Shown here piece by piece: positions 2,890-11,577 of a stretch of DNA of 13,671 nt. Source of the stretch: Candidatus Thorarchaeota archaeon (GTDB taxonomy: Archaea; Asgardarchaeota; Thorarchaeia; Thorarchaeales; Thorarchaeaceae). Numbering within the stretch: position 1 is the stretch's first letter; every line of letters begins with the position of its first letter. The notes under the pieces are model-generated. The model was not told the origin of the DNA, searched no databases, and worked only from the letters and a program-made list of their open reading frames with translations. Both the position numbers and the translations under genes were made by a program. Location: NCBI GenBank assembly GCA_048884785.1, contig JBHLQM010000019.1:1-13671 (forward strand), written 5' to 3'.

Positions 2890-2924
2890 TTTTATCATTC
2901 AAGACCATCTCCTTGTTCTCTGAA

Positions 2925-4247
2925 ATGAGTGAGAAGGTCCCAAATATTCCTGGTCTAAAGACATTGAGAAGCAAATTCTCTGCAATCAGGTCAACAAGAA
3001 TCAAAAAGATAGCTATCTATAGTACGCCCGCCCCTCATGCAATACTTGCAGCCGCAGTTCTTTGTCGTGCTGCACTCAGAGCTAATATTCTCTTTCATGT
3101 TAAATTCATAGAGCCTCTGGAATCAGTTGGGGTAGTTCCTAGGACGCTACCCAAGGAGTCTGATACATTACAAGTATACATAGACATTACATTCTATGGA
3201 AAGGAATTTCCAGACAATGAACGAATCGTTGCCATTGGGTCTTCATCCTACCCTGATTTTGTTTCAATTGAAGTAAAACGTGACTATCCTATTGCTTTAG
3301 AGGCCTATACTCTTGCAAAAGAGGTATTGAAGATAAGCAACGAGGAGCTATCTCTTGCAGCAGCAGGTTCAATTCTTGAGGGATTGACAAACAAACCATC
3401 AAATGAGATACTATCAGTTTCTACCAAGAGCAATCTCATTTCCTCTCGAAAAGGGTTCAAGATACCCGGTACTAACTTTCTTCCGCTTGATGAAGTGTTT
3501 CTCAACAGTATTCATCCATTCATCAGCAATTTGAGTGGTAATCCAGCCTCTTGTCAAAAGCTCATCAATGATGCAGACATACCGATTGATAAATGGAGTC
3601 GACCACTGAGTAAATTATCCAACAAGGAGGCACGAAGCCTCTCATCCGCGCTCATACCTCTGCTCTCATCAAACTCAGTACCCGATGTCTTTGGGTCTGA
3701 CTATGAAACACTTACAGAATCGCCCGAAAGCCCAATGCGATACATATCCAGTTTATCAGCCCTTGGTCAAACAATGTGGAGTCTTAAAACTCCGAGCATA
3801 TTTCTAGGAGTTTCAATTGGTGATAGAGCAAGATTGCTAGCCGATCTTATTGAGAGATACAAAAACCACTGTAAAGCAACAATAAATGGCACACAGAAAC
3901 TAAGTTCAATTCTAAATGAGGATGATACAAAGATCTCGAAAGAGAATCACATTTTCACTACATCTGCAATCGCTGAAATTCCTGAGGCCATAGCTCCTGA
4001 TTGTAGTCGAATCATAATGGAATCCGACTTAGGAACGGATACAACATTTCTCCTTCTTAGAACCGCGGAATCAATTTTCATCACATGGAAGAAGCAATTG
4101 CCTTCAGTAAAGGTGATGGCAGCACTTTTGTCAAAAAAGATAGCGCTGGTTTCAGCCTCATCCAATTCAATACGGGTAATGGAAAATTCCGAAAAAGGAG
4201 TGGCAAAAGTTATCGGCGCACTCACGAGCGACATACTGCGGAGCTAA
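2925..4247 (+). CDS. divergent DHH/RecJ-family protein, probable GAN/Cdc45 ortholog with degenerate catalytic motifs, about 440 aa
   Basis: Lies between rps15 and pcc1, the conserved position of archaeal GAN/Cdc45. The N-terminal pattern IAIYS...AILAAAVL..AA.R..ILFHVKF matches the RecJ-like N-terminus, and PLDEVFLNSIHPFISNLSGN...LINDADI resembles the GAN insertion. DxD and DHH are not present. Assigned by eye, without a profile search. Confidence 0.75.
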   Translation: MSEKVPNIPGLKTLRSKFSAIRSTRIKKIAIYSTPAPHAILAAAVLCRAALRANILFHVKFIEPLESVGVVPRTLPKESDTLQVYIDITFYGKEFPDNERIVAIGSSSYPDFVSIEVKRDYPIALEAYTLAKEVLKISNEELSLAAAGSILEGLTNKPSNEILSVSTKSNLISSRKGFKIPGTNFLPLDEVFLNSIHPFISNLSGNPASCQKLINDADIPIDKWSRPLSKLSNKEARSLSSALIPLLSSNSVPDVFGSDYETLTESPESPMRYISSLSALGQTMWSLKTPSIFLGVSIGDRARLLADLIERYKNHCKATINGTQKLSSILNEDDTKISKENHIFTTSAIAEIPEAIAPDCSRIIMESDLGTDTTFLLLRTAESIFITWKKQLPSVKVMAALLSKKIALVSASSNSIRVMENSEKGVAKVIGALTSDILRS

Positions 4248-7627: not shown

Positions 7628-7642
7628 AATAAAAACGTTGTG
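7628..7642 (-). promoter_or_regulatory. putative BRE/TATA promoter for rps3ae
   Basis: Minus strand CACAACG-TTTTTATT about 100 nt upstream of the rps3ae ATG. Confidence 0.4.
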
Positions 7643-7967
7643 ACATGGATGAAAGTGAAGAGCTCCTGAGTTTCCTAGAAGTTGTATGAGGATTTTTACG
7701 ACCTGCATTGGTAATATCTAGCATTATTTCAATTGACCAGCAAAATCCTTTTTACTCGTCAATGCAGTATGTACTCTAGGCTCATACCGAATGCCCCGTT
7801 TAGATGGTATGCCATTTCCTTGTTTTATCCAAAACCTTTTATTTCCACAAAAAGGCGTTCGAATGCTCAGCAGAACCGCTTCCCGTTCATGCATGACCAT
7901 ATGTAGCACTCTACACGATGTTTGCGACAGCCCACAGAATGCCATGTATGGTTATTTAATGCGCAAA

Positions 7968-8044
7968 GGGCTCGTGGCGCAGCTAGGTAGCGCAGCAGGC
8001 TTTTAACCTGAGGGTCGCGGGTTCAAATCCCGCCGAGCCCGCCA
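7968..8044 (+). tRNA. tRNA-Lys(TTT), intronless, CCA encoded
   Basis: Acceptor GGGCTCG/CGAGCCC, D stem GCGC/GCGC, anticodon arm GCAGG-CTTTTAA-CCTGA (anticodon 8002-8004), T arm GCGGG-TTCAAAT-CCCGC, discriminator G8041, CCA 8042-8044. Confidence 0.98.
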
Positions 8045-8091
8045 CGTTCCTTTGGCTGGCATGGAGAGAAGACGGTTGTGTCGAGTAAAAC

Positions 8092-8185
8092 ACGGGGCGG
8101 CTAGTGCGGTTACATGAGCAGACTCGGATTTTCTGGGTTATGCTATGGGAAGCGATAATGGCTGCAGTAGTTACCCCGTCCCATA
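8092..8185 (+). ncRNA. putative structured RNA element (rpoB leader or tRNA-cotranscribed ncRNA), family unknown
   Basis: 8092-8112 pairs with 8159-8179 at 19 of 21 positions, 5 of them G.U. It encloses a further hairpin at 8113-8147 and an 11-nt purine-rich bulge at 8148-8158. Confidence 0.65.
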
Positions 8186-8205
8186 CTCCTCAAGGGTGTA
8201 GCTCA

Positions 8206-11200
8206 ATGTCGGAATTGAAAGAAAGACAGAAGTATTGGCCTGTGATTGAATCATACTTCTCAGAGAAAGGATTAGTAGGCCAGCATCTCGATTCATTTAA
8301 CAGATTTGTAAGAGAGGAATTACAGCATGTAGTAGACAGTGTCGGGAGGCTAAATCCCAAGGTCGAAGGATACTTTGTCGATCTTGGTGAAATTACAGTC
8401 ATGCCTCCATCAGTCAGGGAGGCAGATGGAAGTGAACATCCACTCTATCCAAATGAAGCTCGAATTAGGAACCTCACTTATGCCAGCAAGTTGTTCCTAG
8501 ATATGACACCGGTACGTCAGGAAGGATCGGTCACCACACGACTCGAAACCATGCGAATCTATATTGGTGACCTGCCTATCATGCTTCGCAGTGAGAAGTG
8601 TCTACTATATGCAATGAGTAATGATGAACTTATCAAACATGGTGAAGACCCCGGTGATCCTGGTGGTTACTTCATCATCAATGGTTCAGAACGTGTTTTA
8701 GTCACTCAAGAGGATTTGGCGCCTAATAGGATACTAATAGAAGAAGCCAGTAAGAGCTCAAGCTACACCCACATTGGCAAAGTCTTCTCAACATCCCGCG
8801 GATTTCGCGCGCCAGTCACCATTGAGAGAAAGCGTACCGGAGAACTTCGTGTGTCATTCCCATCTGTGCCGGGCAAAATTCCACTTGCCATTCTCATGAA
8901 GTCCCTTGGTCTTGAGTCAGACCGAGATATCGCGGAAGTAATCTCTGACGACGAAGAGATTCGAAATGAGCTCATCGTAACCATTGAGCAAGCCGCACCT
9001 ATCAATGTAGGTCGTGAAGAAGAAGAAGACGCGTCAACAAAAGTGAATGCACTGGATTTCATTGGTAAGAGAGTTGCAGTAGGACAGACAAAGGAATACA
9101 GGCTCGCTCGTGCCGAGAAGGTTCTAGACAGATATCTTCTCCCACACATCGGCACTGAAGATAAGCACCGTCTGCAGAAAGCATACTATCTTGGACAGAT
9201 GGTTGAGCGTCTGCTTGAACTAGTACTTAGCAAGCGTTCAGCGGATGATAAGGACCACTACTCTAACAAACGGCTCAAACTGTCAGGAGACCTTCTCATG
9301 TCCCTATTCAGGGTGGCACTATATTCTCTAACAAGAGATATCAAATACCAGCTTGAACGTACAGCTGTTCGTGGTCGCAAACCAAACATCCGCACTGCAG
9401 TAAGAGCAGATGTAATTACACAACGGCTCAAGCATGCACTAGCAACCGGCAACTGGGTTGGTGGAAAAGCCGGTGTTTCCCAGCTACTAGATCGAACTAA
9501 CTACATCTCATCACTATCCCATCTCAGACGAGTTGTATCTCCTCTATCACGCTCACAACCCCACTTTGAGGCACGAGACCTTCATTCCACACACTGGGGT
9601 AAGATTTGTCCCAATGAAACTCCTGAAGGACCTAATTGTGGACTCGTCAAGAATATCGCGATGATGGCCTACATCTCCGTAGGTACCGAAGAGGATGCCG
9701 TAGAACGTGCCCTCTACAAAGCCGAAGTAGAGTCTATTGAGAAACTGAGAGGTAAACGTGGAGCAAAGTGGGCGGATGTATTTCTTAACGGACGCCTTGT
9801 TGGAGTTCATCCCGCTCCTCAGGTACTCGCAAAGACAATCAGACAGAAACGTCGAGCCGGAGAGCTCGATTCTGAGGTCAACATTTGCTACTATGAGGAT
9901 ACCAATGAAGTACAGATTAATAGTGATGCGGGCAGGGTAAGACGTCCTGTTATTGTGGTTGAAAACGGAAAGAGCCGACTCACTGACGAACACCTACGAA
10001 TGATCACGGATGGAGAGTGGACTTTCACTGACCTGTTAAGGAATGGGATTGTTGAATACTTGGATGCAGAGGAGGAGGAAAACACACTCATTGCTATGAG
10101 TCCAGAGTATATTGGTCCCAAGACCACACATCTTGAGATTGTACCATCCACAATCCTCGGAATCTCTGCAGCACTGATTCCATTCCCTGAGCGAAACCAG
10201 TCACCACGTAATGTTTACATGGCCGGAATGGCAAAACAATCAGTTGGAGTCCCGCCTGCAAACTTCAAGTTCCGAGCTGATACTCGGTCACACTTCTTCC
10301 ACTATCCGCAAGTTCCACTGGTCAAGACACGAGCCATGGATTCAATTGGATTTGAGGAACGACCTGCGGGGCAAAACTTTGTTGTAGCAATCCTTTCCTT
10401 TGAGGGGTACAACATTGAAGATGCGCTCATTATGAACAAGGCCTCTATCGAACGAGGTCTTGGACGAAGTACTTTTGCACGAGTGTATGAGAGTGAAGAA
10501 CGCAAGTATCCTGGTGGTCAAGAGGACCGTTTTGAAATTCCTGATAGAAGCGTTCGAGGTTATCGTGCATCAGAGTCTTACAGAAACCTTGGCGAAGATG
10601 GAGTAATCGAAACCGAAGTAGAGGTGCAGGGAGGCGATGTTCTCATTGGTAGAACCTCTCCACCCCGATTTCTGGAAGAATATTCGGAGTTTGAGATTGC
10701 TTCACCCAACCGTCGTGAAACATCAGTAGCTGTGCGCCATGGTGAGGCTGGTGTTGTCGATAGTGTAATCCTTACAGAAACCATTGACGGAAATAGGCTC
10801 GTAAAGGTAAAAGTCCGAGACCTTAGAATTCCTGAACTTGGTGACAAGTTTGCTTCTCGTCATGGTCAGAAAGGAGTTGTTGGCTATCTTGTTCCACAAC
10901 AGGACTGTCCGTTCACAGAAGATGGCGTTGTCCCTGACTTGATCATCAACCCACATGCCATTCCTAGCCGAATGACCATGGGACAAATCCTAGAGATGGT
11001 CGCAGGCAAAGCCGGTTCAATGGTCGGGAAACAGCAAGATGCAACTCCATTCTGTGGTGTGACCGAAGAGGAGCTATTCCAAGCGCTCACAAAGCATGGT
11101 TTCAAGTACAATGGCCGTGAAACAATGTATTCAGGTATCACTGGCCAGAAACTACTCACAGACATTTTTGTTGGTGTCATCTACTATCAGCGTCTACACC

Positions 11201-11577
11201 ATATGGTGGCAGACAAGATTCACGCACGAGCTCGCGGTCCTGTTCAAATTCTAACAAGACAGCCCACTGAAGGTCGTGCTCGTGAAGGTGGTCTGAGATT
11301 CGGCGAGATGGAGCGTGACGTGCTTATTGGACACGGCGCAGCAATTCTCCTGAAGGGCAGACTACTTGACGAGTCTGATAAGAGCAACATGCTGGTCTGT
11401 GAGGAATGTGGCCTCATAGGTGTTTACGACAGAAACCGTGACGCCTACTATTGTCCAATATGCGGCACTGGTTCGAAAATTAGCAGTGTCGTGGTATCAT
11501 ACGCATTCAAGCTTCTCATACAAGAAATGATGTCATTAGGCTTGGCCACTAGGCTGCGGCTTAAGGAGATGATCTAA
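8206..11577 (+). CDS. rpoB: DNA-directed RNA polymerase subunit B (Rpo2), unsplit, 1123 aa
   Basis: [69 protein letters not shown] and a C-terminal CxxC...CxxC. ATG 8206 has SD-like AGGGTG at 8193-8198. Confidence 0.98.

Follow-up and report, generated by a model that had tools for sequence, protein, structure and literature searches.

A conserved, sense-strand-specific structured RNA between tRNA-Lys and rpoB in Thorarchaeaceae, best read as a leader of the RNA polymerase operon

What is the long, G.U-rich inverted repeat that lies between a tRNA-Lys gene and rpoB in a Candidatus Thorarchaeota genome, and what might it do there? An earlier note, made from the letters of this locus, described it as a single RNA hairpin with a one-sided bulge, selected on the sense strand, and proposed that it was either a new cis-regulatory leader of the RNA polymerase operon or a non-coding RNA released by tRNA 3′ processing. 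To our knowledge, very few cis-regulatory RNAs are known in archaea, and the way in which archaea balance the synthesis of their RNA polymerase is largely unknown; being strongly conserved, covarying, single-copy and placed directly 5′ of rpoB, the element offers a concrete, testable handle on this balance. In addition, Asgard archaea are the closest known prokaryotic relatives of eukaryotes.

The source genome is a Candidatus Thorarchaeota MAG (assembly 91%-complete), and the window, that is, the whole stretch of 13,671 nucleotides that was analysed, is archaeal DNA. Its plus strand carries Kae1, a Bud32-like kinase, S15 and a 444-aa ORF, and its minus strand carries a FAU-1/RNase E-G-like gene and S3Ae; after these minus-strand genes come tRNA-Lys(UUU), the RNA element, an unsplit rpoB and rpoA′ (as shown in Table 1). 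Past the window, the same contig continues with rpoA″, an L7Ae-family protein in the L30e position, NusA with its KH domains, S12 and S7, so that the order of the operon headed by rpoB is rpoB-rpoA′-rpoA″-L30e-NusA-S12-S7. This makeup is identical in the four other family genomes checked, and the operon content is alike in genomes with a strong, a weak or only a degenerate copy of the RNA. For the 444-aa ORF, located at 2913-4247 with S15 on one side and the FAU-1-like gene on the other, Pfam returned nothing at E≤0.001.

Table 1. Positions of the features between tRNA-Lys and rpoB, numbered within the window.
Feature	Position	Strand	Remarks
tRNA-Lys(UUU) gene, CCA encoded	7968..8044	+	ARAGORN; Rfam tRNA 67.6 bits
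Spacer from tRNA-Lys to the RNA, 47 nt (37-56 nt in relatives)	8045..8091	+	34% pairwise identity
Structured RNA element, conserved; 90 nt here, 85-97 nt in relatives	8092..8181	+	covariance model R1, 90.4 bits
Basal stem, 5′ strand: ACGGGG, unpaired C8098, tandem G.U (G8099, G8100), CUAGUGCGGUUA	8092..8112	+	
Junction strand J1	8113..8120	+	length and sequence variable among genera
Hairpin A: GACUCGGA-UUU-UCUGGGUU	8121..8139	+	stem up to 9 bp, three conserved G.U positions, U/C-rich loop
Hairpin B: UGC / UAUGGGAA / GCG	8141..8154	+	3 bp here, 4-5 bp in most genera
Basal stem, 3′ strand	8159..8179	+	followed by conserved CC 8180-8181
Shine-Dalgarno-like GGGUG, 13 nt 3′ of the RNA (7-14 nt in relatives)	8194..8198	+	
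rpoB, unsplit, 1123 aa from ATG at 8206	8206..11577	+	first gene of the operon

With regard to the fold, much of the first description of 8092-8179 can be kept. Counted by hand, 8092-8112 against 8159-8179 gives 14 Watson-Crick pairs, five G.U pairs and two mismatches (C8098.A8173 and G8104.G8167), exactly as had been stated; the apical hairpin formed by GACUCGGA and UCUGGGUU was read correctly, and the distance from the end of the hairpin to the rpoB ATG is indeed 26 nt. What has to be revised is the overall shape: the basal stem and the apical hairpin of the proposed single hairpin stand, but comparison of 63 distinct relatives identifies its one-sided bulge, GGAAGCGAUAA, as the loop and 3′ strand of what is, in most genera, a second hairpin. 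The consensus fold, as predicted from this comparison, is Y-shaped, namely, a long basal stem carrying a three-way junction with two hairpins.

The basal stem is 17-21 bp long, and its consensus consists of ACGGGG/CCCCGU, a conserved C.N mismatch, a tandem G.U, CUAUUGC/GCAGUAG and a short variable extension; its outer and inner model helices are 98.7% and 87.8% paired, respectively, and six of their pairs show double-sided changes. Hairpin A follows the consensus GAGCUCGGA-loop-UCUGGGUUC, with a U/C-rich loop of 4-9 nt. Its inner five pairs are formed in 61-63 of the copies (n = 63), the sixth in 58 and the three outer ones in 51-56, and the corresponding model helix 3 is 99.4% paired, with double changes in three pairs. 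Hairpin B, for which the 63 distinct relatives give the consensus (C)AUGC-NNNGGGAA-GCRU(G), has a loop with GGGAA at its end in 62 distinct copies and GGGAG in the remaining one of the 63, and GGGAAG at 8147-8152 is the most conserved block of the whole element. The junction strands are the least conserved parts, J1 being 4-10 nt long. The GGGAA of loop B is complementary to UUYUC, for which loop A, the 3′ tail and the anticodon loop of tRNA-Lys are candidates; in the search for such pairing, the tail variants (GAAU, GUUC) did not track loop B, and since GGGAAG is essentially invariant, covariation is uninformative on these partners. An upstream ORF starting from the conserved junction AUG was also considered and rejected, its frame being broken, as judged by eye, by loop-length changes of 1-2 nt between genera.

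Several lines of evidence show that the conserved structure is that of the sense-strand RNA. On the plus strand, RNAfold reproduces the fold of the earlier note at -41.1 kcal/mol, with z = -2.93 (200 dinucleotide shuffles, two of them as good), compared with z = 0.07 for the minus strand; G.U predominates at 8 of the 26 pairs of the covariance model; and the scores of this model are 51-94 bits in the sense direction versus at most 22 bits in antisense. On this point, the earlier reading of the element as a sense-strand RNA, and not as a DNA palindrome, holds. As for covariation, in an alignment that was fitted to the covariance model and so leans towards it, 92.7% of the cells are paired, compared with at most 46% when the partners are slid, and compensatory (both-sided) changes occur in nine pairs, compared with 3.1 ± 1.2 in shuffles, none of 500 of which reaches nine. 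An independent MAFFT alignment of 21 species points in the same direction with weaker numbers. The structure is thus conserved and covarying in the relatives, as the first reading had expected.

In Rfam 15, only tRNA matched in the window at the gathering score, and no family overlapped 8092-8181 either at that score or even at E≤10, which agrees with the novelty that had been supposed. Covariance model R1 matches 73 of the 86 Thorarchaeaceae genomes, in 15 of the 16 genera, with one copy per genome except in two contaminated assemblies, and every copy lies just 5′ of rpoB. The source genome likewise has a single copy, both by BLAST and by the covariance model. A MITE-like dispersed repeat is incompatible with this single copy, always found at the rpoB locus. 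The RNA family is real, sense-strand-specific, lineage-specific and new, its structure, strand, conservation, covariation, single-copy state, taxonomic range and fixed place all being shown by the sequence analysis. The two exceptional assemblies, G052 (contigs C151 and C66) and G062 (contigs C151 and C306), hold two copies of the locus on different contigs, and both copies of G052, when read, have the order tRNA - leader - rpoB; with a contamination of 6-7%, these assemblies most likely represent two strains binned together and no true duplication.

Beyond the family, the covariance model has no match in the sole genome of the sister family and, at E≤0.1, none in 124 genomes of 26 other Asgard families; with the filters off, the rpoB-upstream regions of one sister-family genome and four genomes of other Asgard families also yielded nothing. 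In the sister family, tRNA-Lys still lies 5′ of rpoB, and the spacer of about 210 nt between them is AT-rich and unstructured. Genus g14 (genome G019) has a degenerate copy in the same place, which scores 10 bits with a fold z of -0.5; its stem has undergone many compensating changes, and UUGGGAAC is retained. From this degenerate copy and the absence in the sister family, it follows that the element is dispensable in close relatives. When 185,579 species genomes were scanned for the pattern, the matches were Thorarchaeota records, which the covariance model confirmed, and high-GC bacterial chance matches, which fail it, as does the single viral match to the pattern.

The surroundings of the RNA are as regular as its fold. 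In 63 of 63 distinct copies, the common order is a spacer of 37-56 nt, the RNA of 85-97 nt, a gap of 7-14 nt, a GGUG Shine-Dalgarno and the rpoB start, the last lying 19-28 nt past the end of the RNA; a tRNA-Lys ending in CCA stands upstream in all 61 copies (of these 63) whose upstream sequence is readable. The interval from the tRNA to rpoB can be aligned as DNA across the family, and the RNA is its best-conserved portion: the RNA has a pairwise identity of 73%, compared with 34% for the spacer, 49% for the next 22 nt on the 3′ side and 68% for the initial 120 nt of rpoB. Neither a T5 run nor an AT-rich TATA-like box occurs in the spacer; the sequence at -25 to -22 relative to the RNA is G-rich, so that there is no TATA-like box for the element. 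The 7 nt directly 5′ of the stem are A-rich and G-poor, with A at -5 in 58 of 63. That is to say, no promoter or terminator signal was found between tRNA-Lys and the RNA; no T5 terminator follows the RNA, and the gap to the Shine-Dalgarno is too short for a promoter.

The simplest reading of the interval between tRNA-Lys and the element is a precursor that comprises tRNA, leader and operon. As there is no room for a promoter before rpoB and no terminator after the RNA, the element must belong either to the rpoB mRNA itself or to a longer transcript from which that mRNA is cut. The fixed site 7-14 nt 5′ of the Shine-Dalgarno, without room for a promoter, also favours the leader option, and it can be said with good confidence that the element is part of the rpoB 5′ UTR. 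The preferred reading is a leader of the Thorarchaeaceae RNA polymerase operon, probably untranslated and serving either to control or to protect the operon mRNA. Regarding the cis-regulatory leader proposed at the outset, its placement as a leader is thus favoured by the fixed position, and the regulatory role is what we infer in addition. The promoter search for the presumed tRNA-RNA-operon precursor gave nothing convincing: TATA-like boxes lie about 30 nt 5′ of other tRNA genes in the genome, but this tRNA-Lys has none at that distance (window 7900-7967). The sole AT-rich box near it is TTATTTAA at 7951-7958, 10 nt 5′ of the mature end, which is not conserved in relatives; in many relatives, the positions from about -25 to -15 carry a loose (C)ATATGG-like motif.

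How might such a leader work? We tentatively propose, with somewhat less than even confidence in the statement as a whole, an autogenous operator to which a protein binds and which, in addition, shields the 5′ end left by processing. The RNA would be co-transcribed with tRNA-Lys in one precursor, from which RNase P and tRNase Z would remove the tRNA, and the very stable basal stem of 17-21 bp would then lie near the new 5′ end of the mRNA. The two hairpins on top of the stem would form a compact Y, in which the GGGAAG loop of hairpin B may dock on the almost invariant, G.U-rich stem of hairpin A, and the surface of this Y would be recognised by a protein, most plausibly a product of the operon (RNA polymerase, L30e, NusA, S12 or S7). 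Bound 7-14 nt 5′ of the Shine-Dalgarno, the excess protein would hinder the loading of the 30S subunit at rpoB, which would make the translational operator autogenous, and the stem would at the same time shield the processed 5′ end against 5′-3′ exonucleases. Beyond the fold, its conservation and covariation, and its setting between tRNA-Lys and rpoB, two considerations speak for this proposal. First, the presence of four RNA-binding proteins (L30e, NusA, S12 and S7) in the operon, together with RNA polymerase, favours an autogenous operator. Second, helices and loops that are conserved in sequence, in combination with variable junctions, fit the recognition of a surface by a protein better than a ligand pocket in the junction. 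More doubtful, although possible, is the wider statement that the leader senses the output of its own RNA polymerase and ribosomal-protein operon, or else confers on the transcribing polymerase or the processed mRNA a resistance to termination or exonucleases, that it is physically coupled to the tRNA-Lys whose processing makes the 5′ end of the mRNA, and that it represents the first cis-regulatory RNA class of Asgard archaea.

There is also evidence against the operator. The K-turn needed by L30e or L7Ae, in which tandem sheared G.A/A.G pairs next to a 3-nt bulge place GA on both strands, is absent: such a GA on either side of the boundary between stem and junction occurs in 0 of 63 copies, AU and GC being the commonest dinucleotides there. 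Furthermore, the element is absent from the sister family and degenerate in g14, both with the same gene order, no conserved pairing that would sequester the Shine-Dalgarno was found, and the search for a precursor promoter was negative. Mimicry of rRNA was also examined and set aside, the only match being the 8-nt UUGGGAAG in 16S rRNA, for which the chance is about 7% for one octamer in 4.5 kb. The 16S rRNA of the source genome (G000:C29, ~36,675) contains CGCUUGGGAAGUACGG, which we take to be the 5′ side of helix 27 in the E. coli secondary structure, and shares the octamer with the commonest hairpin B loop; this is a weak lead. In bacteria, S12 contacts the helix 27 region, and S12 is encoded in the rpoB operon, a circumstance noted beside the octamer match.

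The first alternative to the operator is that the element is a pure processing or stability device without any regulatory partner, which, once the tRNA has been cut off, would mark the 5′ end of the rpoB mRNA and guard it, for example, against a 5′-3′ exonuclease of the RNase J or aCPSF2 type. The long and very stable basal stem, the folding energy of the whole element of about -40 kcal/mol, the G-poor, A-rich single strand immediately 5′ of the stem, and the tRNA that is always 37-56 nt upstream with neither terminator nor promoter signal in between are all what such a device would have, and a compact three-way junction is the kind of shape that resists exonucleases. However, an invariant GGGAAG loop and a hairpin A whose sequence is invariant across 15 genera would be needless for a simple stem, and both the sister family and genus g14 manage without the element in the same gene order, so that we regard a device of this kind, acting by itself, as unlikely.

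The second alternative corresponds to the non-coding RNA of the earlier note. Here, a stand-alone small RNA, either trans-acting or part of a ribonucleoprotein, would be released from the tRNA-Lys co-transcript, and its link with rpoB would be a matter of gene order only. Like many archaeal small RNAs, the element directly follows a tRNA; a terminal stem, accompanied by a conserved 3′ CC, joins its two ends, and its loops are highly conserved. On the other hand, it has no terminator after it and leaves no room for an rpoB promoter before the Shine-Dalgarno, its range is a single family, in whose genomes it occurs once and invariably at the rpoB locus, and it shows no features of C/D, H/ACA, SRP, tRNA or other families; a stand-alone RNA is accordingly judged rather improbable. 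The known classes tested were all rejected. None of the 63 copies has both a C box (RUGAUGA) and a D box (CUGA). In an H/ACA sRNA, one would expect an ACA box directly 3′ of a lower stem of some 9 bp, together with a two-sided pseudouridylation pocket and, at the apex, a k-turn or k-loop, but the basal stem here has 17-21 bp and no such pocket, and nearly all copies continue on the 3′ side with GUCC in place of ACA. ARAGORN and Rfam see only the tRNA-Lys at 7968-8044, and a tRNA-like 3′ NCCA does not apply either, the tail being UCC followed by U, C or A, with A in only 5 of 63. SRP (7S) RNA is an RNA of about 300 nt with an Alu domain and an S domain, present once per genome, and its full-length archaeal match lies elsewhere on the contig, at C19:35561-35871 (91.3 bits, model positions 1-317). 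This SRP RNA (G000:C19:35561-35871, L065; Rfam RF01857) scores below the gathering score of 96.5 bits, so that standard annotation would miss the gene.

The third alternative is a riboswitch or another two-state switch, in which a small molecule or a tRNA would shift the RNA between the long hairpin and the Y fold and thereby change the expression of rpoB. The starting point is the middle helix of the earlier note (CAU/AUG and AGCA/UGCU), in which J1 of the source genome may pair alternatively with 8141-8146. This claim holds mainly in the source genus, where hairpin B has only 3 bp and the middle helix belongs to the minimum-energy fold; across the family, the helix is paired in only 62% of cells. 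The three-way junction in a 5′ UTR and the occurrence of two folds within 2 kcal/mol in 43 of the 63 sequences would suit a switch. Nevertheless, when J1 is shuffled, the alternatives are nearly equal (median z = -0.41), and since shuffled J1 folds almost as well, the bistability is indistinguishable from chance and no selected switch is claimed. In riboswitches, the most conserved nucleotides are found in the junction, P1 is short and ligand-gated, and an expression platform hides the Shine-Dalgarno or forms a terminator. In the Thorarchaeota RNA, the junction strands are the least conserved, the closing stem of 17-21 bp is far above a ligand-gated P1, and neither of the two folds sequesters the Shine-Dalgarno, with which no conserved pairing was found; a typical riboswitch with a junction pocket was rejected for these reasons, and a switch of any kind is very improbable. 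The long arms of the inverted repeat might finally recall a DNA-level palindrome (a site of protein binding or recombination), a mobile repeat or a chance hairpin, but 5 of the 21 arm pairs are G.U and become C.A mismatches on the other strand, G.U is commonest family-wide, the minus strand folds no better than its shuffles (z = 0.07), and the element is single-copy, covarying and conserved above the neighbouring coding sequence, so that, as far as sequence analysis goes, these readings are already refuted and retain next to no probability.

Returning to the leader of the RNA polymerase operon, its closest parallels are found among bacterial operon leaders, such as the L10 leader of rplJL-rpoBC and the S7 operator of the str operon. 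These are likewise structured, lineage-restricted leaders of operons for ribosomal proteins and RNA polymerase, located near the Shine-Dalgarno, single-copy, and with helices and loops conserved both in sequence and in pairing. In contrast to them, the Thorarchaeota RNA is archaeal (Asgard), matches no Rfam leader, shows no rRNA mimicry beyond the UUGGGAAG octamer, lies 5′ of rpoB and just after a tRNA gene, the ribosomal-protein genes following only about 8 kb further on, and has no promoter signal of its own between the tRNA and the element. Processive antitermination leaders such as the put RNA of phage HK022 are stem-loop RNAs that open a long operon and could act in cis on the polymerase; we know of no archaeal precedent for them. 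The likeness lies in two hairpins on a basal stem at the head of an operon of >12 kb, from where the element could act in cis on the transcribing polymerase; there is no homology in sequence or structure. The xrRNAs and the 5′ stabiliser stem-loops resemble the element in the compact three-way junction, the probable processed 5′ end and the single-stranded tract before it; however, there is no evidence in the Thorarchaeota RNA for the ring-forming pseudoknots that define xrRNAs, nor any homology, and exonuclease resistance is here only predicted. The nearest archaeal precedent comes from L7Ae leaders, namely, the k-turn operator in the archaeal L7Ae 5′ UTR, together with the k-turn autoregulation of yeast L30 (PMC5539422, PMC6298567). 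The proposed translational operator in an archaeal 5′ leader and the presence of L30e, an L7Ae-family protein, in the rpoB operon are shared with this system, whereas its defining tandem G.A beside a 3-nt bulge is absent from the Thorarchaeota RNA (0/63).

In the full-text literature, no description of the element or of any archaeal rpoB leader was found, nor one of a cis-regulatory RNA in Asgard archaea. In a survey of Asgard ribosomal-protein clusters, the account of the str/L30e cluster of Thorarchaeota mentions no RNA (PMC10833476). Should the cis-regulatory reading be true, the element would give Asgard archaea their first described class of cis-regulatory RNA. Entered into annotation libraries as a new RNA family, it could be marked in the majority of Thorarchaeaceae genomes (in the present search, 73 of 86), and it indicates an unusual transcript architecture, in which a tRNA, a leader and the RNA polymerase operon follow one another.

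Some minor observations concern the genes on both sides of the element. The tRNA-Lys(UUU) gene 5′ of rpoB measures 77 nt here versus 93-171 nt in relatives (for example, L109:468-601 on the minus strand and L231:1170-1284), the greater length being due to introns. In G019, this tRNA-Lys apparently has two introns, of which the first follows the anticodon and the second lies within the T-loop; copies of this kind escape detection by ARAGORN. As for rpoH, which encodes the Rpb5 C-terminal domain, the gene is not located 5′ of rpoB in Thorarchaeaceae (window 7640-8205 and relatives); searches of the 91%-complete source assembly did not return it, and it was detected in 40 of the 40 relatives searched. 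In the family genomes in which both genes were located, rpoH lies on a contig other than that of rpoB, and in several genera there are two tandem copies about 650 nt apart. The rpoH frames of the relatives (for example, G011:C32:8313-9172 and G009:C19:28819-29687) are about 190-220 aa long, compared with about 80 aa for the usual archaeal RpoH, and their long product may be a eukaryote-like long Rpb5.
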